Below, one piece after another: positions 6,796 through 53,267 of a stretch of DNA of 64,000 nt (its first letter is position 1; each line of letters begins with the position of its first letter). The position numbers and the translations under genes are program-made. The stretch is from positions 1,317-65,316 of the forward strand of contig JAMPAL010000001.1 of NCBI GenBank assembly GCA_023667245.1, read 5' to 3'. The DNA comes from Anaeroplasma bactoclasticum. GTDB lineage: Bacteria; Bacillota_I; Bacilli_A; ML615J-28; CAG-313. Under the pieces are notes generated by a model. That model saw only the letters and a program-made list of their open reading frames with translations, was not told the DNA's origin and did not search any database.

Positions 6796-6799
6796 GTCC

Positions 6800-8069: not shown

Positions 8070-8152
8070 AGTCATACTCCTTTTACAATTAAATAACAAC
8101 TGTTATTTAATGAAATTATACTATAGAATAAAACATTTGTAAAAAGAAATGA

Positions 8153-8183
8153 TAAAAAAGAAACCAAGTTATCCCTTGATTTC
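8153..8183 (-). terminator. intrinsic terminator after the lipoprotein gene
   Basis: On the minus strand: GAAATCAAG-loop-CTTGGTTTC (one mismatch) followed by TTTTTT. Confidence 0.6.
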
Positions 8184-8202
8184 TTTTTTATCTATAGCTC
8201 AC

Positions 8203-9093
8203 CTAACAAATATAAAAAGCATATTCACAAAGACCCTGACTATATTTCACTTGAAGGATATAAATTTGATGCCGTTCTAAAGGAAGTTCTTTTTGCGTAA
8301 ACCACTTGGTTTGGAGCAGTTGTTGTTTGTTTCCACCAGATTCATCATAAGTGTATATTGTTAACTGTTCAAATGAATAGTTTAAATTGGCCGTCCATAG
8401 CACCAATGACCAGTTGTACTGACTATCCAATACAACCGGTTTTGAAAGTGCATAAGCTATATTATCTATACCTTCTTTTTTAGACTGATTCCATATATAG
8501 TTGGTTGGGCTTAGTGCTTCTCCTTGACTATAATTATTGTGATCATCTATATATTCATATGCAATATCAAAGTGGGGAGGATAAAGAATATCATTTGGTA
8601 ATGTACCAAATAAATCATATCCGTAAAGATGATAAAAGGCATAATCAGCCTTTTGAAAAATAGCCTCTGGTATATGGTTTTCTCCACTAGAATACTGAAT
8701 AGTCCCATCCACATAACTAATTTTCAATCTCCAACCTCCGCCATCATCTATCCCACCAGGTGATGGATATTTTTCTTTTAACTGAAGTAATCCAGTTTGA
8801 TGAATTTCATTCATAAATGTAGACACTTTTTCTATTGCAAATGTAAACTCTAATGAAAAAGCTGGCTTTTCTTCTTCTGGCATATATCCCCGGGAACGAA
8901 CCTCTCCTTTTTCCAAATCAACCACCTGTTCTTTGGTATATCCACCACAATAATCTATGGTAACATATTCTATATTAGCAATGGCTTTACCTTGATAATC
9001 AGCAGGAGTACAAGAATATAAAAACCCACATAATATAACTAAAAATAGCATAAGAATATATACGAATTTTGAATAACTCTTCCGTTTTAACAT
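8203..9093 (-). CDS. hypothetical lipoprotein
   Basis: 296 aa with a signal peptide and lipobox (LCGFLYS-C). I recognised no family. Confidence 0.6.
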   Translation of the reverse strand: MLKRKSYSKFVYILMLFLVILCGFLYSCTPADYQGKAIANIEYVTIDYCGGYTKEQVVDLEKGEVRSRGYMPEEEKPAFSLEFTFAIEKVSTFMNEIHQTGLLQLKEKYPSPGGIDDGGGWRLKISYVDGTIQYSSGENHIPEAIFQKADYAFYHLYGYDLFGTLPNDILYPPHFDIAYEYIDDHNNYSQGEALSPTNYIWNQSKKEGIDNIAYALSKPVVLDSQYNWSLVLWTANLNYSFEQLTIYTYDESGGNKQQLLQTKWFTQKELPLERHQIYILQVKYSQGLCEYAFYIC

Positions 9094-9157
9094 TTCTCAT
9101 TCCTCCTCATATATTATATCAAATTAACAAGACAATCATACTTGTACCAAGTATAAT

Positions 9158-10051
9158 TTACACATCTTGTGGTTGGGTAAGAGACTTTACATATGCTTCC
9201 GCATTTAAATTGACAATAGAGGTAGCTACTGTAAATAGACCTATTCCACAAACAAATGCCACTACTCTATTAAATAGGATGCCTAAAATTAAAATCATTG
9301 CTACTGCTATACATGCGATCAAGCTATTACTGATGCATAGTTGAATGATATTCTTCATTGTTACAATGGATTTAAATGATACTTTTTTCCATCCATGCAC
9401 AAGATAGGCTTCAAAAAGAGCAACAGCGCCCGATAATAGTAAACTAAAGAGGGTAAAAAGTAATCCACTTGGTAACCATAATCCGACAAACCACAGGCAA
9501 AGCGCAATTAAAGTTACATTAAGCATTGTATCAATGAAAGTAATGATAAAATATTTCCATAATTTTCTTCTTGCAATTGATCTTCGAATCCACATTTTCG
9601 TGAGTAAAATACCACTAATGAGTCCAACCAAAATAAAGAATAAGCCTACTATCGTAAGTGCAATCAATTGACCAAGCGCTTCTTGAATAAGGACTATAAT
9701 TTGTTCGATATAAACGCTATTTTCACCAATAACTTGAGTGATAGCATCATAGAAACATTGTTCTAACCAGTCAGTCGAAAACATCATTTGAATGGCTTCT
9801 TGATAGTTGCTCCAATCCAAATGAGCAATGGCATCTGTCATAGTTGTGTATAATACGGAAACATCCAATTGCGTATTTTGGCTCACTTGATTGACCCCAT
9901 TCACCAAATGACGAACGACTTCTAATAGACCTGGAATAAACAGTGTAAACGAAAAAACAATACCCAAGAATAACGTACCTAGTGGTGTAAAAACATATTT
10001 CAAGTGGATGAAAAAATGTTTCATGCCTTGACGAATCATTCTAATCCTCAT
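9158..10051 (-). CDS. hypothetical polytopic membrane protein
   Basis: 297 aa with several long hydrophobic helices. The start overlaps the stop of the upstream HAD gene. Confidence 0.6.
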   Translation of the reverse strand: MRIRMIRQGMKHFFIHLKYVFTPLGTLFLGIVFSFTLFIPGLLEVVRHLVNGVNQVSQNTQLDVSVLYTTMTDAIAHLDWSNYQEAIQMMFSTDWLEQCFYDAITQVIGENSVYIEQIIVLIQEALGQLIALTIVGLFFILVGLISGILLTKMWIRRSIARRKLWKYFIITFIDTMLNVTLIALCLWFVGLWLPSGLLFTLFSLLLSGAVALFEAYLVHGWKKVSFKSIVTMKNIIQLCISNSLIACIAVAMILILGILFNRVVAFVCGIGLFTVATSIVNLNAEAYVKSLTQPQDV

Positions 10052-10757
10052 TCAAATGGTTGAGGTATTTCATTAAGGCCTCAAAATCACCATGAGGATA
10101 TATACTGATATCCTTATTTTCAGAATTAATCAAACAATCCGTTAGCAAAAATACATGCATACCTAAGTCTTTTCCCACCATATCTTCTTTGACATCATTA
10201 CCAATCATTAGGCACTCTTCTGGCTTACAGCCAATTTGATGCGCAATATCTAAATAGTACTCTGGATTAGGCTTACAAAATCCAATATTTTCATATGTTG
10301 TGATATATGTAAAAGCACTTTCATCTATTCCTGCCCAACGAATGCGATTGAGAGTGGCTATCTTAGGAAAAATAGGATTGGTTGCAAGAACAAGGAGATA
10401 CCCATTTCGTTTTGCCCAATCTACGACAACTTGAGCTGCTGGTTGAATTCCACAAATGGATTGTAGGCGATTAAATTCATTTTGATAATAGGCTTCAAAA
10501 AGAGGCATATCCGTTGTCACTGTCTTTTTACAATATTGTTCAAAATTTTGCCAAAATACAACTTCATTACTTTGTTTTCCATTGTTTTTGACCATTGCAT
10601 CAACTCCACCCATAATACCTTGAATCAGCATCTTAGGTTCATATCCATGAGGAGCGAGTGTTTCAGATAAAGTTTTGAAATAACCTTTGGTAAACTGCTC
10701 TTGATCCATTGGAAGTAATGTTCCATCTAAATCAAATAAAATAGCTTTAATCATCAT
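10041..10757 (-). CDS. HAD-superfamily hydrolase
   Basis: Motif I is ILFDLDGTLL and motif IV is MIGNDVKEDM. I chose the start MMIKAI (ATG at 10757), 6 nt after AAGGAG. The tracked ORF extension to 10856 covers the promoter and terminator region. Confidence 0.85.
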   Translation of the reverse strand: MMIKAILFDLDGTLLPMDQEQFTKGYFKTLSETLAPHGYEPKMLIQGIMGGVDAMVKNNGKQSNEVVFWQNFEQYCKKTVTTDMPLFEAYYQNEFNRLQSICGIQPAAQVVVDWAKRNGYLLVLATNPIFPKIATLNRIRWAGIDESAFTYITTYENIGFCKPNPEYYLDIAHQIGCKPEECLMIGNDVKEDMVGKDLGMHVFLLTDCLINSENKDISIYPHGDFEALMKYLNHLNED

Positions 10758-10825
10758 CTTATTCTCCTTTTGTTTTTGATTTCTATTTGTTATTATACCC
10801 CAAATTGGTCCATAAAGCAAGAAGA

Positions 10826-10866
10826 ACGAAAAATACTGTTGGCCTAAAAAAGTCAACAGTATTTTT
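10826..10866 (-). terminator. intrinsic terminator after htpG
   Basis: 12-bp stem AAAATACTGTTG / CAACAGTATTTT with a T-run on the minus strand. Confidence 0.65.
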
Positions 10867-10871
10867 GATTT

Positions 10872-12818
10872 TTATTCATTTGTACTCTTAATCATCAATT
10901 TACACATTAAATTCGAGAATTCAACACTATTGGTGAGCTTAAATCCTTCCATCAATAAGGCTTGATTATATAGTAGGTAAGCATAGTCTTTGATTTCTTC
11001 TGGATGAGTCGCATATACTTTTGTAAGTGCCCCAAATAAATCATGATGCGGATTGATTTCTAAAATTCGCTCTGCCTTGATTTTATCTTGGGTTGGCATA
11101 GCATCAATAACTTTTTCCATTTCGAAAGAGATACCATCACCAGAAACTAGACAAACGGGCGAATCAATCAATCGTTTGGATAAACGTACCTCTTTGACTT
11201 CTGTCTTTAGTGCCTCTTGGATGGCCTCTAGTAGATCTTTGCTTTGTGTCTTGACTTCTTCATTTTTTTCCTTTTCTTCTTCTGTTTCTAAGTCATCAAA
11301 AGTAGCTTGATTAATGGATTTGAATTCATGTTCATCGTATTTTCCTAATATCTTAAGCAAGAATTCATCCACATCATCAGTCAAAATGAGCACATCAAAT
11401 CCTCTTTTCTTGATTGCATCCATTTGTGGCATTGCCAGTATTTCTTCTTTTGTTTTACCCGTTGCATAATAAATGTCTTTTTGACCTTCTATCATATGGG
11501 TAATATATGTTTTAAATGTAACCATTTTTTCTTGGTTGATTGTCCGATAAATAAGTAAATCTTGAAGTTGTTCTTTTTTAGCTCCATAATTTTCATAAGC
11601 ACCAAATTTAAGTTGAATGCCATAGTTTTGGAAGAAAGTCACATATTGGTCATAGTCATCTTTTAAAAGAGTGGCGAGACGACTTAAAATTTTCTTTTCA
11701 ATATTTTTTTGCATCAACTGTAGTACTTTATCCTGTTGTAACATCTCTCGGCTAATATTGAGCGATAAATCACTAGAATCTACTACACCTTTTACAAAGC
11801 GTAAATAATCAGGGATTAATTCCTTACATTTATCCATAATGAAGATACCCTTTGAATACAATTGTAGACCTCTTTCATAGTCAATAGAATGTAGATTTCT
11901 AGGTGGCAATTGAGGGATAAATAACAATGTATGATAATTGATATTTCCTTCAACATGGAACATCAAATGTAACATTGGTTTTTCATAGTCATAGAATTTT
12001 TGCATATAAAAGTCATTTAATGCTTCTTCTGTAACTTCATTCTTTGGTTTTTTCCATAAAGGAATCATTGAATTTAGTGTAGTTAGTGTTCTAACTTCTT
12101 CATATTCATCCTCAATCTCTTTTCCATTTTCATCTAATTTCGGTTCTTCTTTTGTCATATATAGCGTAATGGGGTAACGAATGTAATCAGAATACTTTTT
12201 CACTAAGTATTGCAATGCATATTCATCTAGATATTGGCCAAAATCTACTTCTGTTTTTCCATCTTCTGATTGGATATTTTCTTTTAGATATAATGTAATA
12301 CTTGTACCCTCTGTTATTTTATCCGATTCAGCAATTTCATATGTATCCTCGCCTGTTGAAATAAACCGATAACCTTTATCGCTATAAGGCGATTTGGTAT
12401 CTACTACTACTTTTTGCGCAACCATAAAGGCGGAATAAAAACCAACGCCAAATTGACCAATTGTTTCTGGATTTTCTGCTTCTTCTGATTTGCCTTCTTC
12501 TAATTTCTTCATAAAAGCAAGGGTCCCCGATTTTGCAATGGTTCCTAAATTATCATTGACTTCTTCATAAGTCATACCAATCCCGTTATCTGTAATAGTC
12601 AAGGTTCTAGCATCTTTATTGATTTCTAAATGAATTTCGTAGTCATTGCGTTTTGCTAGTTTTTCATCTGATAATGATAGATAATGATATTTATCAATGG
12701 CATCAGATGCATTAGATAACAATTCTCTTAAAAATATTTCTTGATTTGTATAAATGGAATGAATCATCAAGTCTAAAAGTCGCTTGGATTCTGTCTTAAA
12801 TTCTTTAATTTCACTCAT
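10872..12818 (-). CDS. htpG: molecular chaperone HtpG (Hsp90)
   Basis: 648 aa with GHKL ATPase motifs ELLSNASDAIDK and GQFGVGFYS and a full-length Hsp90 architecture. Confidence 0.95.
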   Translation of the reverse strand: MSEIKEFKTESKRLLDLMIHSIYTNQEIFLRELLSNASDAIDKYHYLSLSDEKLAKRNDYEIHLEINKDARTLTITDNGIGMTYEEVNDNLGTIAKSGTLAFMKKLEEGKSEEAENPETIGQFGVGFYSAFMVAQKVVVDTKSPYSDKGYRFISTGEDTYEIAESDKITEGTSITLYLKENIQSEDGKTEVDFGQYLDEYALQYLVKKYSDYIRYPITLYMTKEEPKLDENGKEIEDEYEEVRTLTTLNSMIPLWKKPKNEVTEEALNDFYMQKFYDYEKPMLHLMFHVEGNINYHTLLFIPQLPPRNLHSIDYERGLQLYSKGIFIMDKCKELIPDYLRFVKGVVDSSDLSLNISREMLQQDKVLQLMQKNIEKKILSRLATLLKDDYDQYVTFFQNYGIQLKFGAYENYGAKKEQLQDLLIYRTINQEKMVTFKTYITHMIEGQKDIYYATGKTKEEILAMPQMDAIKKRGFDVLILTDDVDEFLLKILGKYDEHEFKSINQATFDDLETEEEKEKNEEVKTQSKDLLEAIQEALKTEVKEVRLSKRLIDSPVCLVSGDGISFEMEKVIDAMPTQDKIKAERILEINPHHDLFGALTKVYATHPEEIKDYAYLLYNQALLMEGFKLTNSVEFSNLMCKLMIKSTNE

Positions 12819-34909: not shown

Positions 34910-36052
34910 TTAATTGCTTTTTCGAATCAAGACTACTGCCTCACTAGCGACACCTAATCCACTGCCAATTAACCCTTGTTTTTCCAAAGTAGTTGCCTTC
35001 ACATTTACATAAGCGGCATGCGTGAGCGCTTTGATATGATTGGCCATTAAAATTTTATGTTCTTTTAAATTGGGTTTTTCTAAATAAACGATAACATCTA
35101 AGTTTTCTACAACATAGCCTTCCATACGCACTTCTTTCATTACTTCTTCAATAAAATAACTAGAATCCATATTTAAAAAAGTATCATCTGTATCTGGAAA
35201 TAAAGTGCCTAAATCACCAAGTCCTAGAGCCCCCATAATGGACTCAGCTACAACGTGGTAGACAACATCCGCATCACTATGTCCTTTTAGTCCCCAAGGC
35301 GTGTCAAATTGTACACCACCTAGTATCAGTTTTCTTGTTTTATCAATCGGATGAAAATCAAAAGAATGCCCCACTTTATACTGATTGCGATGTGTCAAAT
35401 AATAAGTCACTAAATCCATATCTTCTATTGTGGTCACTTTTAGATTAGGTCTTGATTCTTCTACAAAAGCAACAGGTAGTTGTTGTTCAAATAGACGAAT
35501 TTCATCTGTAATTTCTACGGGTGAAATATCCGCATAAATGATATCAGAAAATAAATCACTTCGAAAAAATTGTGGTGTTGAAACTGCCTTTAGCGCTTCT
35601 CTTGCAATTGTTTTTACACCAATTGTGGTATCTTTTACTGTATCATATACTTTATGATATAACGTACCACATGCATATCGTTCCATTTGTTCCATCAAGT
35701 GATTGATATCTTCAACTTGAATCATCGGTCTTGCGGCATCATGAATCAAAACAAAATCAGCATCGACTTCTTGTAATGCCTTTTGTACACTTTCAAAACG
35801 AGTAGCCCCACCTTCTACAAATGTAACTTGCTCATCGTCATAGTTTTGATATACAATTGACTCAATTTCTTCTCTTATATCAGATGAAACGGGTATATAT
35901 ATATGTTGAATAGCAGGATGATTTATCAATACATCTAGACTATACATAAAAAGAGGTTTTTGATGTACTTGATACAGTAATTTATTTTCGCTATGGCAAA
36001 AACGTTCACTTTTTCCTGCCATCAACAAAATGGCACTAATGGTTGGATTCAT
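34910..36052 (-). CDS. ispDF: bifunctional MEP cytidylyltransferase / MEcPP synthase IspDF
   Basis: The N-terminal IspD part carries LLMAGKSERF. The C-terminal IspF part carries GHSFDFH and GHSDADVVYH. Confidence 0.95.
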   Translation of the reverse strand: MNPTISAILLMAGKSERFCHSENKLLYQVHQKPLFMYSLDVLINHPAIQHIYIPVSSDIREEIESIVYQNYDDEQVTFVEGGATRFESVQKALQEVDADFVLIHDAARPMIQVEDINHLMEQMERYACGTLYHKVYDTVKDTTIGVKTIAREALKAVSTPQFFRSDLFSDIIYADISPVEITDEIRLFEQQLPVAFVEESRPNLKVTTIEDMDLVTYYLTHRNQYKVGHSFDFHPIDKTRKLILGGVQFDTPWGLKGHSDADVVYHVVAESIMGALGLGDLGTLFPDTDDTFLNMDSSYFIEEVMKEVRMEGYVVENLDVIVYLEKPNLKEHKILMANHIKALTHAAYVNVKATTLEKQGLIGSGLGVASEAVVLIRKSN

Positions 36053-37261: not shown

Positions 37262-38050
37262 TTACTCCTTTACAATTAAGTGTTGTTCTAATAGTGTTCT
37301 TAATCCTTCTAATGATAATTTGCCTGTGATAGTACCACCGATTGTATTGGCTACTTGCCCAGTTTCTTCTGAAACAACAATAGTAAATGCATCACTTTGT
37401 TCACTAATACCTATTGCGGCACGATGCCTTGAACCATAATGCTGAGGTATATCTTTCTTTTGACTTGGTTGGAAAAATGCACTTGCACATTTAATTCTGT
37501 CTCCTCTAATGATTACAGCACCATCATGTAATGCGGTATTGGGGTGAAAAATGGACTCTAATAATTCAAATGTGATTTCCGCATCTAATTCGACTGCACC
37601 TTCAATCAAATTATTCAATGTATGCTCTTTTTCAATTGTAATAATGGCACCAATTCTTCTACTACTCAAATAATCCACTGACTTAATCAGCGTATCAATA
37701 ATCAGCGTCTTTGTATCTTCATTGGTTAAAAACTGCTTGGTTTCTTTTTTTTCTGTCTTTAAAGTCGCATGGGTTTTATACTCAGGTATGTAAAATACGA
37801 ACGTATAAATGGTAGTTAAAATAAACATTGCTGCACTAATATAATATCCTAGTTTCAATCCCATTACTAAACAAATGACAAATAAAACTAAAATTGCTAA
37901 ATAGATGACAATCATCGCTTTTGATTGAACATGTCGGCATAAAAAGTGAATCAATAATGCCAATCCAAAAACAAGTATGACCATTTCAATGGCGAAACTA
38001 ATATAGCCATAACCAAGCGATTCTATATATTTTTGTATAGTTTCAATCAT
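37262..38050 (-). CDS. cdaA: diadenylate cyclase CdaA (membrane-bound c-di-AMP synthase)
   Basis: 3 TM helices plus a DAC domain (DGAVIIRGDRI, GSRHRAAIGISEQSDAFTIVVSEETG). I chose the ATG at 38050, 1 nt after the ankyrin gene stop. The tracked ORF runs to 38131. Confidence 0.9.
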   Translation of the reverse strand: MIETIQKYIESLGYGYISFAIEMVILVFGLALLIHFLCRHVQSKAMIVIYLAILVLFVICLVMGLKLGYYISAAMFILTTIYTFVFYIPEYKTHATLKTEKKETKQFLTNEDTKTLIIDTLIKSVDYLSSRRIGAIITIEKEHTLNNLIEGAVELDAEITFELLESIFHPNTALHDGAVIIRGDRIKCASAFFQPSQKKDIPQHYGSRHRAAIGISEQSDAFTIVVSEETGQVANTIGGTITGKLSLEGLRTLLEQHLIVKE

Positions 38051-38051
38051 G

Positions 38052-38582
38052 TTATCGTTCTTCTCCTTTTTTCTTATAAATTGCTTTTTCCAAAAATGAA
38101 ACAATATTTTGATTTTTTTCATCTTTGGCATAATCCATTACGGATAAATTTTTTTCATCTACTAAAAGCACATCGGCTCCTAGTGCTATCAATGTTTTAA
38201 TCATTTTCTCATCCCCCAAAATAACGGCTCTGTGTAGCGGTGTTTGTTCAAACTCTCCAGGTATATCAATGTCTGCGCCAGAGTAAACCAAATATTTAAC
38301 TGCTTTTCGGTTATTTTTTTCCACAGCTAAATGCATAGGACTCACAAAATGGTCATCACACAAATTGGGATTGCTTCCCCTTTCTATTAAAAAGGGAAGC
38401 AATTTGGAATGGTTTTTTTCAATGATATAGTGAAGCAATGTTTTGCCTTGATCATACTTCATATTTAAATCTAGTTCTTTTTGTAGCATTTTTTTGACTT
38501 GCTTTTTATAATATCGCGTTGTTTTTTGTGTGTTTTTGATTTCCTGAATAAAAACAATCGCTTCCGTTTTACTTATGCTCAT
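38052..38582 (-). CDS. ankyrin-repeat protein
   Basis: 176 aa with at least 3 ANK repeats (GKTLLHYIIEKNHSKLLPFLIERGSNPN; VSPMHLAVEKNNRKAVKYLVYSGADID; QTPLHRAVILGDEKMIKTLIALGADV). Its ATG overlaps the giant gene's TGA (ATGA). Confidence 0.85.
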   Translation of the reverse strand: MSISKTEAIVFIQEIKNTQKTTRYYKKQVKKMLQKELDLNMKYDQGKTLLHYIIEKNHSKLLPFLIERGSNPNLCDDHFVSPMHLAVEKNNRKAVKYLVYSGADIDIPGEFEQTPLHRAVILGDEKMIKTLIALGADVLLVDEKNLSVMDYAKDEKNQNIVSFLEKAIYKKKGEER

Positions 38583-41500
38583 CCTTTTTTCTCCAATGCC
38601 AATTGTTGAATAATGTGGTTAACAACCTCATCATACTGTGTATATAAATCATGAATATACACGACTTCCACCTGCCAACCTCTTTTTTTATACTCTTGAT
38701 GATAATAAATATAATCATCTACAAATGTTGTAGTATAATCTTCGCTTTTACCCATAATCATAATTGCAAAAGGTTTCTTTCTTTTGATAATAATATCAAA
38801 TGAACCAAACCCACTCTCTGCCTTTACTTTTTTATCTCTTAAACTTTGAATCAATAATTGAGTAATTCCTTCTGGCTTTTTTTCTTGCATAACATTTTTT
38901 CCAATGGTCTGTTGAATTGACTTTAGAATCATCTCATTTTCACTTTCTAACCGATGTTTCAAATAAAATACTTGTACACTGTTGTATACCGCAATAAAAT
39001 TTTTAAACACCAACTCTTTTTCGGAAGCTTCTAAATCTCTAAAATCATCATAATAGATATATACATCATTGACATAGCGATTACCTTCAGTTAAAGCATT
39101 CAAAATACGAATGTGATAACATAAAATGTTACCTATTTCTTCTGGAGAATAGGCATTGACCAATCCTTTTACAATGCTCGTATACGCTTTTCTTCTAGTG
39201 GATTCATTGGCAACCAATACATTGATAATGTGAGATGGATTCATATAAAACCGATTTAAAATATGCTCAATAAATGCTTCAAAATGATCGACTTGAATAA
39301 TATCGCATTGATTATCATAGGCATAAATATATTGATTATTATAACTCCAAATATTGTTGAATTTGGAATTCATTTGGATATAACGCCTTTTATAATCTAC
39401 AGTACAAGCTTTTCCTAATCGTTGCATCAAAGCATTTGAAACAGAAGTTTGGAATAATTTATCACCAAAAATAATGACTTGCTTACACTCTTGAATCCGG
39501 TAATATTTATTGGAAGTAGATAAATGAGCATCATCTACAATGACCAAATCAAATACTGATATATCCAAATGACTATTGAGAATATCTAAATCAGATAAAA
39601 AGACAGGTACATTTTTGGATAAAGCATTTACAATATGGTTATAGTCATTAAAGGCATACCCATGATTCAAGTTTACTTTTTTCCGAATATCTTCTACTTT
39701 TTTCTTTAATTCAAACCCATTTTTTTGACAATACGCATATTCAAAATCTTGATAATCATTTAAATATTGCAATAAAGATTGGGATGACAAAAGTTCTGGA
39801 TATTGAGATTCAATAGTACGATAATAGTCAAGAAATACACTATACATAAAGCGTTTAGATATGCCTAGTCCATATTTACAACTTCGAATACCTTCATATA
39901 AATCATTTAAGTGATAATTCAAAAATCGTTCTGTTAATACATTAATAGTCAAGATTGCATCAATTTGATCTACCTTATTGAGATATGTCTTAAATATTTT
40001 GATATTGGCATCAAAACTATTGGATTGAAAATCATTTTGACTACCTTTAAAGCAAACAGAAAAGGCCCTAAAAGCACTAACCCACTGAGCGTACATCACA
40101 TCAATTGCTTTGATATCTTCTAAAAGATGATTGAAATGTTGATCTTCAAAAAGTGCATTAATATCACAATTAGGAGATATTTTTTTCAAAAAATCATCAT
40201 AATGTTCAATAGTTTGACCAATATCACTGATAATGGTATCTAAACCCCGATAATATTTGCCTAAATTTTGCTTATATCTTGGTGCATTGGTTTCTAAATC
40301 TTTTTGTAATTGTTGTTGCATTCTATCATTTTCAATTAGAGTAACAATATCATCATACGTTACTGTATCTTTTTGAACAAAAATGCCTTTGATTTCTTGC
40401 TTCAATTCAATTACTTCTTTTAAATACAATTGCCACAATTTAATTTTTTCAACTTTATCTAATATGCTTCCATCTACAATGTGTATATTGTAATTGCGAA
40501 GGCTCGTACAAATACTAGAAGTTTGATAGCCTTCTGATTTGATTTGTGTCAATAATTGATGAATCACTTGAATATAGTGGTCTTGATATCTACCTTTTTT
40601 ATATTCATGCAATAATTTTTTCCAAGCAGAAATAAATTGATGATCCAAAGTAGTTACAAACTGATTGAATTTCACAAACTGCTCTACTAGTTCAATATCT
40701 AGTTCTTTTTTACCAAATACCTCTTGAATTGCATCTTGTAAAATTTCCATAGTGTGATAATATTTTTTTACATGTTCGACAATGAATTTTACATCTTGCT
40801 TTTCTTTTTTCGCAATTTTACGATTGATGTAATGCATAACAAAGCGATCTTGATTTTTTTTGTGCAATTCAACATCTAAAAAGCCCTTCGTTAATTGTTC
40901 AAAATGTGTAATAAAGCGAGGAAGGAAAATCACTTCTTCTAAATACAATAAATACGCATCCGTAATCGTCTTTTCATATTTACTAAAAATCATAGGTTGT
41001 TCTAAATAACAATCGATTACAAGTGGATTCAATAGATGTTGATTTAAAAATTGATCCAATTGTGTAAAAAAGCTATAACATGTATCTGTGATTTCTTTTA
41101 GACCAAATATGTTTTTCAATTTACTTACTAGTTCAGTTGTTTGATTGACGTTTTGTTCCATATCTTTGGTTAACAACACCAATTTTTCATCAAACTGAAT
41201 CAATCGATTAATAAAAATTGCATCTGTTGTTTCCCAGTTTTCTTCTACATTTAAATGGTCAGCAAGAATCACCTTTAAAATTTTTTCCATTCGTCCAGGA
41301 ATATAATTGTCAATAGTAGTCGCCTCATAATATTTAGATAAATTATATTTGATATCTACTAAGCCCTGAATTTCACGAAGGGATTTAAGTGTTTCCCGTC
41401 TAGTTTTTTCATCTATCCATTCCGGAAGTGGTCGAACAGAGGCAAAGTGATACACATGAGAAATGGTTTTATATAACTCATGAATGGTACTAGCAGGTTT

Positions 41501-42940
41501 GATTCCATATTTAGCCATCGTTTTCTTTTCTTTTTGATATAATTCAATATTGATTTCTTGTAATTCCTCTAAGCGCTGAATAATGCTTTCTTTAGTAATA
41601 TTATTTCGATAAATTTGTAGACGATGCCATACATTTGTTGCGTAAGTATCTATCATCTTTAAAGCATCTTCTATTTCAAGTAAATCATGATAAATCCGTT
41701 GCACTTCATGTTTTTCTAGTGTGATTTCTAATTGAATCGGTTCTATAGAAGGGTTTTCTTTTTTCAAGATAGCCAATTCTTCAAAAATATGGTGAATGGT
41801 ATAGCCATGTATTTTGGTCTGAAAATGATTGAGATGGTTGAACAATTGCGCAAGAATATCCAAAGAAAGATCTGACTTTCCTTTGTTTTCAATATCCACC
41901 TCTGGTCTTTCAATTCTTCGCAAGTTTCTGGTTAAGTTATAGGATAATCCGTCAAATCCCAAATAAGAAATACTTTTTTCTAAGTCGAATAAATTATCTA
42001 AATCCTGATTGATATATAAAACTTTTTTCCCTTTGAGCACTTGGTCAGAAAGAATATTTAAAATGGTATGTGTTTTCCCACTACCAATTCTACCATCAAT
42101 GGCAAATTTTTCTCCCTTATCCACCTTCAATAAAACGTATTTTTGATCTAAGTTGGTAGGTAGTATGCCTTTAATGTTTGTAAAATAGTGATTGACAATC
42201 TTTTCTTCAGTTGTCTCAAAGATAGACCGCTCAGTTGTCATAAAATCCTGACCAATTAAAATATCGCCATATTCTACGTTTCCAATTGTCAAATAGTTAG
42301 TAGGATTGACTGTTGTATGCAGTACTTCTCCCAAATCCAAACAAAGTTTGTCAATATCTTGTACAGAATAAATCTTCCGTGATACATATTCATCGTAGAA
42401 TCGTTTTTGATAATCGGTTTCGTTACCACCAATAATTTTATATTTTGATTTTCGTAAATAATCAATTGGATTGGTCTTGTCTTTTTCTATATCTCGAAAA
42501 TACAATACAGCCAATTCTTTTATAATTTTCGTATTAATCATCGGCGTACTACTGGCCACGATCTCAAAGCTTTGATAATCAAAGTCAAAAGGGATGAGAA
42601 CAAGAGGAGCATATTTTTCACAAGATGATTGATCATAATATTTGATTACACCAGCAGTTAACAAAAATTTATAAGACGAATTTTTCAGCCGCAAATTAAT
42701 CAAATAGTTCAGTTGGTAATAGTAATCAAACAAAATATCTCCCGTAATCATACCGCTACCCTCACTAAGGATTTCAAAGTTCATCAACTCTTGTAGATTT
42801 ACTTTCTCCCCCTTGATGATTTTATTCATCATCTTCATATCTATGGCACCTAGTTCGATATAATAATCATCTTCTAAAATATTAATCAAATGCATATTAC
42901 TTGAACGAATATAGTATGTATTGTCATTTTTGATTTTCAT
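38579..42940 (-). CDS. 1453-aa P-loop protein, a divergent or degenerate DUF4011/Upf1-like SF1 helicase relative with a C-terminal restriction-endonuclease-like module
   Basis: Uninterrupted ORF with its own extended -10 promoter and RBS GAGGTAG. The single Walker A GRIGSGKT is encoded at 42071..42094. DLVIVDDAH (39524..39550) and VIIFGDKLFQ sit where motif II and motif III would be. The C-terminal string is FDIIIKRKKPFAIMIMGKSEDY...RGWQVEVVYIHDLY. Confidence 0.8.
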   Translation of the reverse strand: MKIKNDNTYYIRSSNMHLINILEDDYYIELGAIDMKMMNKIIKGEKVNLQELMNFEILSEGSGMITGDILFDYYYQLNYLINLRLKNSSYKFLLTAGVIKYYDQSSCEKYAPLVLIPFDFDYQSFEIVASSTPMINTKIIKELAVLYFRDIEKDKTNPIDYLRKSKYKIIGGNETDYQKRFYDEYVSRKIYSVQDIDKLCLDLGEVLHTTVNPTNYLTIGNVEYGDILIGQDFMTTERSIFETTEEKIVNHYFTNIKGILPTNLDQKYVLLKVDKGEKFAIDGRIGSGKTHTILNILSDQVLKGKKVLYINQDLDNLFDLEKSISYLGFDGLSYNLTRNLRRIERPEVDIENKGKSDLSLDILAQLFNHLNHFQTKIHGYTIHHIFEELAILKKENPSIEPIQLEITLEKHEVQRIYHDLLEIEDALKMIDTYATNVWHRLQIYRNNITKESIIQRLEELQEINIELYQKEKKTMAKYGIKPASTIHELYKTISHVYHFASVRPLPEWIDEKTRRETLKSLREIQGLVDIKYNLSKYYEATTIDNYIPGRMEKILKVILADHLNVEENWETTDAIFINRLIQFDEKLVLLTKDMEQNVNQTTELVSKLKNIFGLKEITDTCYSFFTQLDQFLNQHLLNPLVIDCYLEQPMIFSKYEKTITDAYLLYLEEVIFLPRFITHFEQLTKGFLDVELHKKNQDRFVMHYINRKIAKKEKQDVKFIVEHVKKYYHTMEILQDAIQEVFGKKELDIELVEQFVKFNQFVTTLDHQFISAWKKLLHEYKKGRYQDHYIQVIHQLLTQIKSEGYQTSSICTSLRNYNIHIVDGSILDKVEKIKLWQLYLKEVIELKQEIKGIFVQKDTVTYDDIVTLIENDRMQQQLQKDLETNAPRYKQNLGKYYRGLDTIISDIGQTIEHYDDFLKKISPNCDINALFEDQHFNHLLEDIKAIDVMYAQWVSAFRAFSVCFKGSQNDFQSNSFDANIKIFKTYLNKVDQIDAILTINVLTERFLNYHLNDLYEGIRSCKYGLGISKRFMYSVFLDYYRTIESQYPELLSSQSLLQYLNDYQDFEYAYCQKNGFELKKKVEDIRKKVNLNHGYAFNDYNHIVNALSKNVPVFLSDLDILNSHLDISVFDLVIVDDAHLSTSNKYYRIQECKQVIIFGDKLFQTSVSNALMQRLGKACTVDYKRRYIQMNSKFNNIWSYNNQYIYAYDNQCDIIQVDHFEAFIEHILNRFYMNPSHIINVLVANESTRRKAYTSIVKGLVNAYSPEEIGNILCYHIRILNALTEGNRYVNDVYIYYDDFRDLEASEKELVFKNFIAVYNSVQVFYLKHRLESENEMILKSIQQTIGKNVMQEKKPEGITQLLIQSLRDKKVKAESGFGSFDIIIKRKKPFAIMIMGKSEDYTTTFVDDYIYYHQEYKKRGWQVEVVYIHDLYTQYDEVVNHIIQQLALEKKG

Positions 42941-43025
42941 ATTTTCTACCTCACTGGCAATTGTGTATAATCTGCCACTTTATTATCTATTATATCACTT
43001 TTATTTATTTTATCAAAGGAAAATG

Positions 43026-43055
43026 GAAAAAAAGTAACTATTCGTCTAGTTACTT
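43026..43055 (-). terminator. intrinsic terminator after the ClpC-like gene
   Basis: On the minus strand: AAGTAACT-loop-AGTTACTT followed by TTTTTT. It overlaps the stop codon. Confidence 0.7.
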
Positions 43056-44997
43056 ATCTTGTTTTATTTGTTGTTTCTAATTGGTTAGTTTGTGGATTAT
43101 AATAATACTTCCCTTTTTCTAGCAATAAACTCTCGCAAAAGACCTCTTCTTTTTTACGTTCTGGAATATCTTGTAGGTTTACAATTTGAATAGATTGTTT
43201 TTGAAACAATTGATCATATTGATTTTGATGATATCTAGTGGGTAAAGTTTTTAGACAGGGAAAGCGTAATTGGGGTTGATTTTGGACTGAATGAATAAAT
43301 CCTGTTTGATGATGATGATTTTGTTTTCCACCAATAGCAAAAATAGCATTGGTTAAATAAATTGTTCTTCCTTTATTATCCAAGAATGTTTCTTTTTGAA
43401 ACAATTGATATAAAAATTGTTGAATAGAAATATGGGCTTGCTCAAAATGCCTAAAATAAACAAATGCCATAGGATACCGAATCAAATGTTCTGATAACAG
43501 CCCACCTTGTTCATATCCCACATACCCCTTTACTGAACCAATTAAGTTATTGATCATAATGGGATCTTGATATGTTTCTAAGTCTACTTCTAGATACATT
43601 TCTTTTTTAAAATGAAATAATTTCATTAAATCTACCATTAAATCTTGGGATACGAAATCATGTTCTACTTCTACTACCGCAATATTGTTTTGTTTTAATT
43701 TCCATTTTCCTTTTTCAATAAACCCCACATAATTTTTTTTCAATTCTGGATAATTTAACTTTGCTTTTTTTAATTCGGTTAATGTCAAATGATGAATAGA
43801 AGTCATATCTTCAATGGTATCATCAATTAAAGATTGGATACTTTTATCACTTGATTTTTTCCTAGCTCCAACCTCATCCATCACATCAATTGCTTTATCT
43901 GGAAAATTGCGATTAACCAAATAACTTTTACTTTTTTGAATGATGGTTTGAATATCTTTATTTGTATATTTTACATGATGATAATTTTCATAACTTATCT
44001 TAATTTCTTTTAAAATATGATACGTTTCTTCTTCTGTAGGTTCATCAATAAACACATTTTGAAATCGTCTAGAAAGGGCTTTGTCTTTATCAATATAATG
44101 ATAATACTCATCTAATGTTGTAGCTCCTATCAATTTCATATCTGAACGCGACAAATAGGGTTTTAAAATGTTGGCTATATCAAGCGATCCATCATTAGAA
44201 CCCGCTCCTACAATATTGTGAATTTCATCAATAAATAAAATTGCCTTTTTCTTTTTGATATACTCCATTGCTTTGGTTAATTTTTCTTCCAATTCACCAC
44301 GATATTTGGTTCCAGAAACAATGCCACCTAAATCCAATTGATAAATATCCGTTTGTAAAATTTCTGATAAGCCTTCTACAATAGCTGTTTTTCCTACACC
44401 TGCATTTCCTATCAGTAACGGATTATTTTTTTGTTTTTTGGATAAAATAAATTGTATCTTTTCTACATAATTGCTTCTTGACACAAAGGGATGAATTTTG
44501 GTAGTGGAAGAAAGATGAATCAAAAATGGATAAGGTGTAGCCTCTTTTGTGAATCCTTTTTGTTCAAAAAATCCAAAAATCTCCTCTATGCTTTCTGCCA
44601 GTTCATCTAAAACTAAGCCTAGCTTTTCTAACACGATACAGGCAACTGAATCATACTCTTTGAGCATCACATAGAAAATATGTTCATCATATACATAATC
44701 ACTATTTAAATCCGTTGCCAAATTTTCTGAAAACAAAATGATTTCTTGAAATTTTTTTGTATATGTTATATCTTGATGGTCCGTTTTTCTCAAAATGACT
44801 AATTTCTCAACTGCATGTAATAAATCCTCATATTGAATATTTTTTTCCTCTAATAAAAAGTGACAAATGCTGTCTTTTGTTTGATACATGGCGAGTAGAA
44901 GGTGTTCACTGCCAACCCATTTTTTGCCTAAAAGTTTCGCTATCTTTAATGCCTCATCAATCATTTGAATTGCATTTGTACTAAAAGCCTCAAACAT
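43054..44997 (-). CDS. ClpC-derived AAA+ protein with an intact D1 module and a degenerate D2 module
   Basis: It has two Clp_N repeats. D1 has Walker A GNAGVGKT (44386..44409), Walker B ILFIDEIH and SRRFQ. The D2-homologous region (LIGSVKGYVGYEQGGLLSE...FRHFEQAH...NKGRTIYLTNAIFAIGG) lacks both Walker A and the Walker B acidic pair. I chose the ATG at 44997, 5 nt after AAGGAGG. Confidence 0.85.
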   Translation of the reverse strand: MFEAFSTNAIQMIDEALKIAKLLGKKWVGSEHLLLAMYQTKDSICHFLLEEKNIQYEDLLHAVEKLVILRKTDHQDITYTKKFQEIILFSENLATDLNSDYVYDEHIFYVMLKEYDSVACIVLEKLGLVLDELAESIEEIFGFFEQKGFTKEATPYPFLIHLSSTTKIHPFVSRSNYVEKIQFILSKKQKNNPLLIGNAGVGKTAIVEGLSEILQTDIYQLDLGGIVSGTKYRGELEEKLTKAMEYIKKKKAILFIDEIHNIVGAGSNDGSLDIANILKPYLSRSDMKLIGATTLDEYYHYIDKDKALSRRFQNVFIDEPTEEETYHILKEIKISYENYHHVKYTNKDIQTIIQKSKSYLVNRNFPDKAIDVMDEVGARKKSSDKSIQSLIDDTIEDMTSIHHLTLTELKKAKLNYPELKKNYVGFIEKGKWKLKQNNIAVVEVEHDFVSQDLMVDLMKLFHFKKEMYLEVDLETYQDPIMINNLIGSVKGYVGYEQGGLLSEHLIRYPMAFVYFRHFEQAHISIQQFLYQLFQKETFLDNKGRTIYLTNAIFAIGGKQNHHHQTGFIHSVQNQPQLRFPCLKTLPTRYHQNQYDQLFQKQSIQIVNLQDIPERKKEEVFCESLLLEKGKYYYNPQTNQLETTNKTR

Positions 44998-45131
44998 GAA
45001 TTCCTCCTTAACTTTTGCTTGCATTTTATTATATGCAAGGCAACATCAAGATAGACTTTTTTTAGTTTTGCTACCTAATTTACTTTTAAACAAGATTATG
45101 GTACAATGATAATTAGAAAAGAGGTGATGAT

Positions 45132-49973: not shown

Positions 49974-52900
49974 TTATGAAAATAAAATATAAAATGAATA
50001 ATCAGAATTCATAAAGGCAGGAACAAACACACTGTCATCATAAGAAGCATTCGATAAGAAATACTCTTCTCCATTATACGTTCCCGTAAAGCCTTCATAT
50101 GCATCATACGCGGTAATTACATATTCTATTCCATTTAATGTAATTTGATTTTCTGTGATTACGAGTACATAAGTTTGACCATTAGATTCTTTTTGATATG
50201 TACCTACCCATGCCGCAGGAATTTGAATTTCTGTTGGTGTTTCTTCTTTAACTACATCACAAGTCACATTTAGCGTAAAATCACTATTCATCACCATCAC
50301 TTGGGCAGGTAAATCTCCCCATGGTGCCATATATGTAACATAATATGTTTCACCATTATATGTACCAGTCCATCCTTCATATTCATCATATTCACTTGGA
50401 ACAAAAGCTGTACCATTGATAGTAATTGCATCTTTTGTAATTACTACAATATATTCTACATCATTCTTTGTTCCTTTATACGTACCTATACTTTCTTCTG
50501 GTATAGTTACTGTTGGAGTAGGTTCTTCAACTACATCACAAGTTATTACTAAACTATAGTCACTATTCATCACCATTACTTGCGCAGGTGAATCTCCCCA
50601 TGGTGCCATATATGTAACATAATATGTTTCACCATTATATGTACCAGTCCATCCTTCATATTCATCATATTCACTTGGAACAAAAGCTGTACCATTGATA
50701 GTAATTGCATCTTTTGTAATTATTACAATATATTCTACATCATTCTTTGTTCCTTTATATGTACCTATACTTTCTTCTGGTATAACTATCTCTGAAGGAT
50801 TCGGATTTGGGTTATCAGCCTTTTTGGTAACAATATAATTTTCACGCATTGTACCGATTTGAAGTTTATCATCAGAATAGTAGAAAGAAACATAATATTC
50901 ACTTACTTCTCCAAGTTTTCCTTCATAACCAGTTGCATCTTTATTTGTAATGACATAACGAACATCATTGATGACAATACCTGCATATGTAATGACAACA
51001 GTTATATTATTGGCCTCATTTACCCAAGTTCCTACATAGCCATCTTCTATTTCAAAGTAAGCTTCTGGTGTCAATGTAGTTGCAAAAGAAGTGGAAAAAT
51101 CATTTCTTGCAAAATATAATTCCGTACTAATTTCATCATCTACTAAAACCAAATAATATGTTTCACCATTATATTTACCTACTAATCCTGTTTGTTCTGT
51201 ATATCCTGTAATAGTAAATTCAATATCATCTACAAAAACAACTTTAGAATGAACTTCTATCTTATGCCCTTCACCCTTCCAAATTCCTTTATATGCATCT
51301 GGAATCACTACATCTTTTGTTTCTTCATCTAATGTATAAATCCGTACGACATAACCTTCTGCGTTAAATTGTGCTAATTCATTGGCATTTGACCACATCA
51401 TCAAACTATATGTCACACCATCTAATGTACCTACAAAACCTTCTTGGCTAGAATAACTTGTTACAACAAACTCTACACCATCTACAAAAATGCCTTCTTT
51501 TGTAACTACAATTTGATGTTGATCATCACTATTCCATGTCCCCATATATGGATCTAGTACACTGGTTTGAACCATATTTTCAAAGTTTACTGGAACAATA
51601 GTTGAATTGATATTGCTGTAAGTAAGGGTAACTGTGCCTTTATAACCATATACTACATATTCATATACAATTTGATACAATTCACCATCTTTTATAGTCA
51701 TTTGTAAATAAGTCACATATGCGCCTAATCGTTGGGCATCATAATCTTCACCAATCCATGATGCAATTTCGGATGCAATTTCTGGGGTGCGTGCTACAAA
51801 AGTACCATCTCCTACATATTCCATTACTGCAGGGTCGAATGTATTGAATTTGGCTTGAACATCACCAATTGTTTTGAAATTAGAAAGTGCATCACCCACA
51901 GTAACGACTTTACCATCATATGCAAAACGATATACAAAACCGTTTAATTCTAAGTATCCATATGTGATACCATCAGTTGCATAATCAGAATAAATCGATT
52001 TGTCATCTACATATACATTATAAACAACATCTTCTTCACCAGCCCATTCATCCAAATGAACAAGCGTATAGTTATTGGTAATTTTAGATAATGCTTCTTC
52101 TAATTGACTGTGTTCAGGTGATTTTTCAAAAGGTTTTACCTCTACTCCACTCTTAGCTGTACCATGTTCAGTAATATCAAATGTATATGTAGATACATAT
52201 GTATCTATAATATTACCTTCGCTATCCTCCACTTCAATAGGTTCAGTCACAAATTCTAGTTTTACAATCTTATCATCACTGACATATACATAGAACTTTT
52301 CAATAGACTCTTCCCATCCTGTGATACAAGATGCAACTGGTTTTCTAAGATATTTAAGTTCATATTTACCAGGTTCAATCATTTCAAAATCACTTACAGT
52401 TAAATCTTTAAATGGATTGTCATATTCATCAAATGGTTCACCAAGATCAACTATATATACTTTATTTGTCATGCTAATATATGGTTGTCCACAATTTCCT
52501 TCATAATTGATAAAACCAAGATTATACAATACCTCACCCGTTGCAAGATCTCTCTCAACTTGAGAAACAGATTCTGAATCAAAAATAGTCACTAATGTAT
52601 GTTGAACAAGTGTCTCATCTTTTTCATATACAAGTGTATATTGACCTGTACATTTTAAAGCAGTTTGAACCGATTGCAATGCAGCAAGCGGAATAGTTTT
52701 ATCCACTTCTTTAGTGATGACTTCAATTTGTGTATATTTGGTCAAAACAAATTGACATGTTCCATTCGTAAAGTCTTGAACTTCATTGTTGATGCTTACA
52801 CTTACAATTTCAAAATTATCTTTGGCTGATGCAATAAATGTAACTTGTGTGCCTTCAAGATATTTTCCGTCTTCTTGCTTTGCATCTTCTGGATAACTCA

Positions 52901-53267
52901 ATTCATATGTAACTTGGGCATCATTTGCCTTTACTGATATAGCATAAAAATGAGTAGATTCACCTTGTTTTTCAAATTGAACATTTACTTTTGTATCTTG
53001 GTAAATCGCAAATACATATTTACCATTTTCTAGTTCAACTCCTTTTCCATTGACGTCTACATTGGCGATAACATAGCCTTCATTGGGTTGAACATTCAAT
53101 GTAATGCTTGTCCCTTCTTTATATCCTTTTTCATTCGTTTCTTTTGTGTAAGTAACTGACCCTTGCTCAGAATCAAATACTATATCTAAGCTATAGTATG
53201 TAACAACACATGATGTTGCAAAGGTTAAACCCAACAAAAGAGTTATCATACATAAAAACTTTTTCAT
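49974..53267 (-). CDS. large surface lipoprotein with InlB-B-repeat-like N-terminal domains and six about-90-aa C-terminal modules
   Basis: 1097 aa with lipobox FATS-C. Two N-terminal segments show the Y..GT.VT..A.P..GY pattern. The C-terminal half contains six copies of a (Y/W)xGTW/Y...I..VDG/NG..Y/F..T.Y....G.xGxxxG..Y module. Confidence 0.8.
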   Translation of the reverse strand: MKKFLCMITLLLGLTFATSCVVTYYSLDIVFDSEQGSVTYTKETNEKGYKEGTSITLNVQPNEGYVIANVDVNGKGVELENGKYVFAIYQDTKVNVQFEKQGESTHFYAISVKANDAQVTYELSYPEDAKQEDGKYLEGTQVTFIASAKDNFEIVSVSINNEVQDFTNGTCQFVLTKYTQIEVITKEVDKTIPLAALQSVQTALKCTGQYTLVYEKDETLVQHTLVTIFDSESVSQVERDLATGEVLYNLGFINYEGNCGQPYISMTNKVYIVDLGEPFDEYDNPFKDLTVSDFEMIEPGKYELKYLRKPVASCITGWEESIEKFYVYVSDDKIVKLEFVTEPIEVEDSEGNIIDTYVSTYTFDITEHGTAKSGVEVKPFEKSPEHSQLEEALSKITNNYTLVHLDEWAGEEDVVYNVYVDDKSIYSDYATDGITYGYLELNGFVYRFAYDGKVVTVGDALSNFKTIGDVQAKFNTFDPAVMEYVGDGTFVARTPEIASEIASWIGEDYDAQRLGAYVTYLQMTIKDGELYQIVYEYVVYGYKGTVTLTYSNINSTIVPVNFENMVQTSVLDPYMGTWNSDDQHQIVVTKEGIFVDGVEFVVTSYSSQEGFVGTLDGVTYSLMMWSNANELAQFNAEGYVVRIYTLDEETKDVVIPDAYKGIWKGEGHKIEVHSKVVFVDDIEFTITGYTEQTGLVGKYNGETYYLVLVDDEISTELYFARNDFSTSFATTLTPEAYFEIEDGYVGTWVNEANNITVVITYAGIVINDVRYVITNKDATGYEGKLGEVSEYYVSFYYSDDKLQIGTMRENYIVTKKADNPNPNPSEIVIPEESIGTYKGTKNDVEYIVIITKDAITINGTAFVPSEYDEYEGWTGTYNGETYYVTYMAPWGDSPAQVMVMNSDYSLVITCDVVEEPTPTVTIPEESIGTYKGTKNDVEYIVVITKDAITINGTAFVPSEYDEYEGWTGTYNGETYYVTYMAPWGDLPAQVMVMNSDFTLNVTCDVVKEETPTEIQIPAAWVGTYQKESNGQTYVLVITENQITLNGIEYVITAYDAYEGFTGTYNGEEYFLSNASYDDSVFVPAFMNSDYSFYILFS
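50250..50807 (-). repeat. tandem 279-bp duplication inside the lipoprotein gene
   Basis: The copy starting at 50281 (TCACTATTCATCACCAT...) recurs at 50560. The encoded 75-aa cores (IPEESIGTYKGTK...VMVMNSD) differ at 2 residues. Confidence 0.9.

Follow-up and report, generated by a model that had tools for sequence, protein, structure and literature searches.

The window analysed here, a 64,000-nucleotide (nt) stretch of an Anaeroplasma bactoclasticum assembly (GCA_023667245.1, contig JAMPAL010000001.1, positions 1,317 to 65,316), carries on its reverse strand a gene for a protein of 1453 amino acids (aa), hereafter the giant, followed by genes for a small ankyrin-repeat protein and for CdaA, the synthase of cyclic di-AMP (c-di-AMP). 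The giant open reading frame (ORF) is a real gene under strong purifying selection. Its product is, with high confidence, an exapted, deep offshoot of the architecture that joins a DUF4011 domain, an Upf1-like superfamily 1B (SF1B) helicase and an MTES_1575 nuclease (the ProA/Hhe type, best known from phage defence), and it is held with the same confidence to be a vertically inherited core gene of uncultured low-GC Bacilli and Acholeplasmataceae, standing first in an operon giant-ankyrin-cdaA-membrane protein-ispDF. The explanation favoured as a whole, in which the giant would be an ATP-binding switch or scaffold coupled to CdaA, is graded as a compromise and falls somewhat short of an even chance.

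Homologues of the giant were recovered in number and with little variation in length. A first search returned 72 full-length homologues (21-98% identity, 1415-1494 aa), all unnamed or titled 'hypothetical protein [Bacilli bacterium]', and phmmer against 1.84 billion cluster representatives gave 111 matches, about 70 of them full-length (1373-1509 aa), in a continuum down to 19-23% identity. The first profile search yielded 71 full-length homologue clusters; a profile built from distant members yielded 76 clusters, 73 of them full-length (1400-1511 aa), with some matches titled as an 'Acholeplasmataceae bacterium' hypothetical protein or as a 'DEAD/DEAH box helicase'. The family comprises at least 140 sequence clusters, nearly all of 1373-1511 aa, from metagenome-assembled genomes (MAGs) labelled 'Bacilli bacterium' and 'Acholeplasmataceae bacterium'. 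In one profile search all family members scored 1379 bits or more and everything else 82 or less; in the other the limits were 820 and 108. Below this gap of more than 700 bits, the next matches were canonical DUF4011 / AAA_11 / AAA_12 / MTES_1575 / DUF3320 proteins of 1350-2013 aa. A scan of GTDB genomes with the single giant protein found two near-identical species only, and the phyletic breadth of the family was taken from metagenome and protein collections.

The ratio of nonsynonymous to synonymous substitution rates (dN/dS), computed against two orthologues that are 92-94% identical (L001 and L002), was 0.045-0.053 and uniform across all domains, including the helical region and the 'dead' nuclease-like tail. 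A decaying or untranscribed helicase-nuclease remnant (a pseudogene) could account for the several altered catalytic motifs described below and for an evolution faster than that of the neighbouring genes (23-35% identity, against 40-61% for hflX, clpC and cdaA), but the frame of 1453 codons is intact, more than 140 clusters keep a near-constant length, the family-specific motifs are invariant, the AlphaFold2 model is confident and a near-consensus promoter and a ribosome-binding site are present. This reading is extremely improbable and was rejected on the dN/dS of about 0.05 found in every domain. An earlier reading made from the sequence alone (the sequence-only reading) had called the protein degenerate and had allowed that homologues might be absent and the gene decaying DNA. 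Mapping of phyletic distribution and neighbourhoods, which it had proposed, revealed instead a family and a gene order conserved across lineages, with clusters exceeding 140 and dN/dS near 0.05; the motif changes it had noticed hold, but the protein has not decayed, its nucleotide-binding site being its best-conserved part.

One of the two close orthologues, on the GTDB representative contig JAMPDF010000003.1 (L001; 94% identical, with a matching operon), stands in a record titled 'MAG: Prevotella sp.'. The title conflicts with a GC content of 33%, with Bacilli-type gene content and with another record titled 'uncultured Bacilli bacterium', and L001 is probably a mislabelled or contaminated bin.

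The ancestry of the family emerged from profile-to-profile alignment. Against 15 canonical relatives, the giant family matched over aa 71-1427 (hhalign 99.8%, E 1.2e-27, 1083 columns). Taken alone, the DUF4011 domain (95.6%, E 1.1e-8) and the MTES_1575 tail (last ~85 aa; 95.6%, E 1.3e-8) also matched their canonical counterparts, whereas RecA2 (AAA_12) alone reached 13% (E 0.0021). Pfam DUF4011 (PF13195) was matched by 9 of 29 family members at E ≤ 0.01 (best 2.6e-6), with the window protein below threshold; in the latter, YAPLVLIPFDFDY lies at aa 110-122. AAA_11 was matched by five of the 29 members, with the window protein at 16 bits against a cut-off of 27, and MTES_1575 gave sub-threshold matches in three of six orthologues. 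No AAA_12 match was found in the window protein or in any of the 29 members, and there was no Pfam match to DUF3320 (PF11784), a domain that occurs in many canonical members but not in all; the giant ends about 30 aa past its nuclease-fold domain.

Structure prediction was performed with AlphaFold2 in two pieces, using an alignment of 73 sequences, and both models were confident: aa 1-340 had a predicted local distance difference test score (pLDDT) of 82.7, and aa 254-1453 had a pLDDT of 86.4 with a predicted template modelling score of 0.57. Foldseek comparison of the larger model with the PDB returned SETX, Sen1, Aquarius, IGHMBP2, Upf1, nsp13 and HelD (E 3e-5 to 4e-3, probability 1.0), in alignments to SF1B helicases that span 350-410 columns, with both RecA-like domains present. 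When the family profile was compared with PDB sequences, the best match was again IGHMBP2, aligned at the Q motif/Walker A and at Walker B/motif III; a search of the same sequences with the giant as a single sequence gave P-loop noise only. The model of the DUF4011 N-domain matched no PDB fold at E ≤ 0.001, and its best match in BFVD, a phage 'AAA domain protein' (E 1.7e-3), was uninformative. The sequence-only reading had laid the protein out like a DUF4011/AAA_11 SF1 helicase, and the Foldseek matches, the DUF4011 matches among family members and the whole-length alignment agree with it. Its proposed structural check produced the Upf1-like SF1B folds; its proposed profile check succeeded for DUF4011 in other family members, stayed below threshold for AAA_11 in the window protein and failed for AAA_12 and DUF3320.

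With the Upf1-like SF1B helicases (IGHMBP2, Sen1/SETX, Aquarius, Upf1; HelD) the giant thus shares the two-RecA fold. It differs from them in lacking the Glu of DEAxQ, the motif V TVDxFQG and the Arg pair of motif VI, in having an 850-aa helical domain in place of the small 1B and 1C inserts, and in the addition of DUF4011 and nuclease-fold domains. Rather than being new in kind, the family is an unnamed and highly derived branch of a known architecture, with a set of gene partners that is new and very consistent.

The nearest named relatives are the anti-phage proteins ProA and Hhe of NCBIfam, and not the Nhi-like proteins that had been suggested from the sequence. With ProA (NF058533) the giant shares, in the same order, the DUF4011 N-domain, the Upf1-like SF1B core with a long helical domain and the MTES_1575-fold tail; with Hhe (NF042953) it shares the plan of DUF4011, SF1 helicase and Vsr-like nuclease, with a weak match at aa 266-611 of the giant. 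Scores, however, were far below the cut-offs, at 54.7 bits against 1500 for ProA and 22.4 bits against 2000 for Hhe. Identity to ProA is 14%, Walker B is DDxH and not DEAxQ, motif III is GDxxFQ and not GDxKQLPP, and the giant is without motifs V and VI, the central Asp of the nuclease and DUF3320, whereas it has conserved ankyrin and CdaA partners. The same motif losses separate the giant from Hhe, as does its core-genome rather than defence context. The possibility, raised with the sequence-only reading, that the protein belongs to a characterised family with intact catalytic motifs is contradicted by these failed cut-offs and altered motifs.

A defence role could still be proposed, in which the giant would be an anti-phage or anti-plasmid protein of the ProA/Hhe/Nhi kind, with ankyrin and CdaA as an abortive-infection or signalling output. 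Among five canonical relatives tested, two (P0075 and P0076) pass the cut-off of the NCBIfam model 'anti-phage protein ProA', P0075 with 1950 bits; the giant has its weak ProA and Hhe matches; and PADLOC reported the candidate model PDC-S37 (E 1.4e-19, partial, aa 703-1081) and a weak P-loop match to mad8, with no Nhi match in its scan of the giant. Apart from the distance to the cut-offs, the genomic setting argues otherwise. The gene holds a fixed position among hflX, clpC, dus, ispDF, tsaBDE and enolase in every lineage, including members only about 20% identical; no mobile-element or defence neighbours were seen at the loci examined; no giant relatives were found on IMG/VR viral contigs; dN/dS is uniformly low; and the catalytic Asp of the nuclease has been lost. 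The canonical ProA-like relatives examined stand alone, with no ankyrin or diadenylate cyclase (DAC) neighbours. We regard a defence function as improbable; a defence-island setting was rejected on the housekeeping gene context, and the anti-phage framing of the sequence-only reading gives way to vertical inheritance in synteny with housekeeping genes.

Between the Lys of Walker A and the Asp of Walker B lie 846 aa, which AlphaFold2 predicts to be almost entirely helical (pLDDT ~80-90). The corresponding stretch in canonical relatives measures about 610 aa, so the giant is about 240 aa longer there, and 225 columns of the region align with the canonical one (hhalign 89.1%, E 2.2e-6), which indicates that the helical domain is ancestral to the architecture and somewhat enlarged. 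Of the insertion of about 800 aa of helical sequence described from the sequence alone, the helical character therefore stands; a new insertion was rejected, since part of the region aligns with its counterpart in canonical relatives.

The catalytic motifs were compared in a census of 73 family sequences of the window's clade. The Q motif (SSQ in canonical relatives, TNxxQK in the giant family) has its Gln (Q266) in all 73, and Walker A (GPPGTGKS in canonical relatives, GRLGSGKT in the family) has G288 and K289 in all 73; the window protein carries it once, as GRIGSGKT at aa 283-290. Motif Ia reads NQDLDNI where canonical relatives have AEKxAAL. Walker B has passed from FDEASQ (DEAxQ) to IDDxHL, with D1136 and D1137 invariant and H1139 in 70 of 73; the second residue is always Asp and the catalytic Glu never occurs. 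DDAH, at aa 1136-1139 of the giant, is retained in members 19-23% identical, and one distant member (P0219) has DEAH. Motif III (canonical GDPKQLPPT) is GDKxFQxS, with G1159 invariant and GDKLFQ at aa 1159-1164 of the giant, and motif IV (canonical HYRS) is RRY, with R1186 in 71 sequences and Y1187 in all 73. For motif V the canonical VQGDERD faces xEGxRYVND, and for motif VI GGWRRLNVAxTRAR faces FKNFIxV, without the Arg pair. In the nuclease, KID...CDG...RDR...GW has become GxFD...IIxG...DDY...RGW: the first Asp is kept in 68 of 73 and the third in 69 (D1382 and D1408 are retained), while the column of the central Asp, that of DG, holds I, M, V or T in all 73 and the Arg of DR is Asp or Glu. 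The altered helicase motifs DDAH and GDKLFQ had been picked out from the sequence alone, together with a Vsr/DUF559-type tail lacking the usual acidic residues; the census places both motifs as described, with Asp for Glu throughout, and the tail is homologous to MTES_1575 with its central Asp lost in every sequence.

The best-conserved stretches are the P-loop (aa 281-320) and Walker B with motif III (aa 1121-1160), and the family can be recognised by the signature LPTNxxQK, GxxGSGKT, FDLVIIDDxH. The giant thus keeps the DUF4011 domain, the Q motif, Walker A, the Gly-Asp of motif III and the Arg of motif IV; the sequence signal of AAA_12 (motifs V and VI) has gone, as have the DUF3320 tail and the nuclease's central Asp, and the SF1B motif set is incomplete. 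From this state of its motifs it appears to be a nucleotide-binding protein without the second half of the helicase engine or the nuclease chemistry.

The main rival to the switch or scaffold reading is that the giant is still a working helicase or translocase with a housekeeping role and variant motifs (DDxH serving like DExH, another Arg standing in for motif VI). Its substrate would be DNA or RNA, in processes such as repair, replication-transcription conflicts or RNA turnover, and its position beside cdaA would be historical. In favour of this rival are an intact SF1B fold containing two RecA-like domains, a nucleotide-binding site that is conserved better than any other part of the protein, the conservation of R1249 and R1250 along with R1186 (64-71 of 73 sequences) and of R1288, the DEAH of P0219 and the presence of the unrelated ispDF in the operon. 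A DUF4011 protein is, moreover, a core gene in every Pseudomonas aeruginosa isolate (PMC10250203). Against motor activity stand the catalytic Glu missing throughout the window's clade, the erased AAA_12 signal with no TRAR-type motif VI, the lost nuclease Asp and an adjacency of giant and cdaA that outlives rearrangements that broke other linkages. We consider an active helicase possible though somewhat unlikely.

The linkage to cdaA proved highly persistent. The gene order in the window is dus, hflX, a clpC-like gene, giant, ankyrin, cdaA, a gene for a 406-aa membrane protein, ispDF, yunB, nifU, an S1-domain gene, tsaEBD and enolase, and the same order was found at loci whose giants are 21-35% identical to that of the window. 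In every lineage with downstream sequence the giant is followed by cdaA, with the ankyrin gene between them in all but L014 (9 of 10 further loci). Fifty-eight metagenome loci were scored with hidden Markov models built from curated loci; 36 of them, forming 16 clusters at 70% identity, have at least 1.5 kb of downstream sequence, and 33 of these 36 have the order giant, ankyrin, DAC, in most cases with the membrane protein and ispDF next. In the remaining three, on broken contigs, the giant is frameshifted or fragmentary. Sources of the loci were human gut, giraffe, sludge and digester samples. Stop and start codons of giant, ankyrin and cdaA overlap or abut. The operon with an ankyrin protein and the c-di-AMP synthase that had been read from the sequence is accordingly upheld, both by the ATGA overlap in the window and by the conserved order in the metagenome loci.

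In a distant clade, L012 has lost the linkage to clpC and L013 has it interrupted; additional genes follow the DAC gene there, but the order giant, ankyrin, DAC persists except at L014, which has no ankyrin gene. In a clade about 50% identical, from human gut (L015-L017, L025, L026, L031, L033, L036 and L037), the clpC-hflX pair is inverted relative to the giant, so the giant operon must have its own promoter there.

Within the window, the listed cdaA ORF (37262..38131) shares 80 nt with the ankyrin gene. The likelier start is an internal ATG at 38050, 1 nt past the ankyrin TAA and preceded by AAGGAG; it gives a product of 262 aa, compared with 265-276 aa in orthologues. The product scored 172.8 bits with TIGR00159 (CdaA; cut-off 188.8) and 33 bits with the DisA model. 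A Pfam scan found no YbbR or GlmM domains in this operon.

On these grounds we favour, as regards mechanism, the following account. The giant would no longer be a processive helicase or a nuclease and may instead be a switch or scaffold that binds ATP, perhaps hydrolysing it slowly, and binds nucleic acid. It and the small ankyrin protein would be functionally coupled to the membrane diadenylate cyclase CdaA, feeding a nucleic-acid or cell-state signal into c-di-AMP synthesis, in an arrangement analogous to the RadA-DisA pair. This mechanistic part we hold to be conceivable but on the doubtful side, and everything past architecture, conservation and synteny is inferred for hosts that are uncultured.

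DisA reportedly pauses at damaged DNA and interacts with RadA. In Bacillus subtilis radA-disA lies between clpC and ispD/ispF, the place held here by giant-ankyrin-cdaA, and RadA/Sms-DisA likewise has a gene for a P-loop helicase-related ATPase followed by a diadenylate cyclase gene, past clpC and before ispD/ispF. The giant, by contrast, is of the SF1B type, not RecA/DnaB-like and not homologous to RadA, the cyclase is of the CdaA and not the DisA type by the scores above (173 against 33 bits), and an ankyrin gene lies between the two, so the analogy would be positional and conceptual only. The operon shared by disA and radA in B. subtilis also contains quality-control genes (PMC10804225). 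Known control of CdaA offers a second parallel: CdaR and GlmM, encoded in a cdaA-cdaR-glmM operon, control CdaA by direct interaction (PMC6368335). Like them, the giant and the ankyrin protein are encoded beside cdaA; unlike them, they lie upstream of it, with an uncharacterised membrane protein downstream, and they show no sequence relationship to CdaR or GlmM.

Several points weigh against the switch-or-scaffold account. The least certain step is the placement of motifs V and VI, which depends on the 13% alignment. DDxH resembles DExH, R1186, R1249 and R1250 could supply arginine fingers, and in principle R1249, R1250 and R1288 could replace the missing Arg of motif VI; the giant may therefore have real motor activity. 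The ankyrin protein is not obligatory, because L014 (GCA_965354375.1; giant at 6001-11109) has no ankyrin gene and the giant stop codon there abuts the DAC start. Adjacency is no proof of a functional link, and because the operon also ends in the functionally unrelated ispDF, co-transcription of unrelated housekeeping genes does occur here. A fuller version of the same account is, in our estimate, rather unlikely: that an order-level lineage of low-GC Bacilli/Acholeplasmataceae domesticated a defence-type DUF4011 helicase-nuclease into a catalytically crippled, ATP-gated nucleic-acid sensor, which would control the essential membrane cyclase CdaA through a dedicated ankyrin adaptor and so provide a hitherto unknown DisA/RadA-like input, made of unrelated parts, by which the state of genome or RNA is passed to c-di-AMP.

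The coordinates of the giant, its domains, its expression signals and its operon partners are collected in Table 1.

Table 1. Features of the giant gene and its operon in the window (all on the reverse strand)
Feature	Position	Strand	Remarks or basis
Giant ORF, 1453 aa + stop, ATG start	38579..42940	(-)	Longest ORF of the window
Sigma-70-like promoter, TTGATA-16 nt-TGnTATAAT	43016..42989	(-)	11 of 12 matches, extended -10; consensus match only
Ribosome-binding site GAGG, 8 nt 5' of the giant ATG	42949..42952	(-)	Read from sequence; consensus-level
Hairpin GTAACTA..TAGTTAC + T7, directly past the clpC-like stop codon	43027..43053	(-)	Read from sequence
DUF4011-like N-domain, aa 1-253, including YAPLVLIP at aa 110-117	42182..42940	(-)	Pfam members, hhalign, AlphaFold2
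RecA1, first part, aa 254-340; Q motif (N263, Q266), Walker A at nt 42071-42094	41921..42181	(-)	IGHMBP2 P-loop alignment
All-helical domain within RecA1, aa 341-1100, boundaries approximate	39641..41920	(-)	AlphaFold2, hhalign, PADLOC PDC-S37 match
Helicase core, second part, aa 1101-1215, approximate; Walker B FDLVIVDDAH (DDAH at nt 39524-39535), GDKLFQ, RRY	39296..39640	(-)	
RecA2-shaped alpha/beta domain, aa 1216-1330; motifs V and VI unrecognisable	38951..39295	(-)	AlphaFold2 pattern, Foldseek
MTES_1575 (Vsr/DUF559-like) nuclease-fold domain without the central catalytic Asp, aa 1371-1453	38582..38830	(-)	hhalign 95.6%, E 1.3e-8
Ankyrin-repeat protein, 176 aa	38052..38582	(-)	Start codon overlaps the giant stop codon TGA as ATGA
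CdaA-type diadenylate cyclase, 262 aa from the likely ATG at 38050	37262..38050	(-)	Pfam DAC 8.9e-39
Membrane protein, 406 aa, conserved after cdaA	36036..37256	(-)	Without Pfam family
Bifunctional IspDF, last conserved gene of the operon	34910..36052	(-)	

The sequence-only reading had given the giant rank as the largest ORF of the window, which is borne out by its 1453 codons, and a promoter and ribosome-binding site of its own; both signals are present, as consensus-level matches only. The hairpin with its run of T is likely to be the clpC terminator, although it was missed by the terminator scan because its stem is AT-rich. Scans of the window for Rfam families and tRNAs gave zero matches, so no riboswitch or other RNA element could be tied to the operon.

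Some further observations concern the neighbouring genes. The clpC-like gene (43054..45024, reverse strand) is short, encoding 656 aa (orthologues 555-658 aa); of its two AAA modules, the first is intact (GNAGVGKT) and the second has a partial Pfam AAA_2 match (aa 466-570), no visible GxxGxGKT and FVYFRHFEQA at the place of Walker B. A second protein at this locus thus appears, as judged from its motifs, to carry a degenerate ATPase module. The 406-aa membrane protein holds a place after cdaA of which cdaR would be the usual occupant, and it has a weak PAS_9 match only. Its distant-clade orthologues have 400-531 aa, and those at L007:13845-15440, L012:12132-13700, L013:11743-12945 and L014:11125-12690 align through a C-terminal domain absent in the window's clade. 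Pfam assigns that domain to GGDEF in two cases only, L014 (E 4.8e-8) and, weakly, L007 (E 4.7e-4); no GGDEF signature motif was found in L014, and the domain is taken to be a degenerate GGDEF. At L014, ispD and ispF are separate genes. Elsewhere in the window, an ORF of 1097 aa (49974..53267, reverse strand) has a divergent InlB B-repeat (Flg_new_2) as its sole Pfam match and probably encodes a surface protein; a similar 1097-aa gene, with DnaJ and Flg_new matches, lies nearby at L014.

In many Firmicutes c-di-AMP serves as an essential second messenger, and CdaR and GlmM are the known regulators of CdaA. In public records the giant family is unannotated ('hypothetical protein') or mis-named ('DEAD/DEAH box helicase'), and it now has a defined signature and gene partners. 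Literature searches on ProA/Hhe, on CdaA with ankyrin and on helicases with diadenylate cyclases returned nothing relevant to the giant family, the origin of the name ProA could not be traced, and the giant-ankyrin-CdaA module is unreported in the literature searched. If the fuller account were true, the family would be a clear case of exaptation of a defence-type helicase-nuclease into a core role after loss of catalytic residues. The strict conservation of the giant and the ankyrin protein just upstream of cdaA in a deep lineage suggests, from gene order and sequence in uncultured hosts, a new regulatory input into c-di-AMP signalling if the link is functional, and the module may be a testable new input into a second-messenger pathway that is essential.

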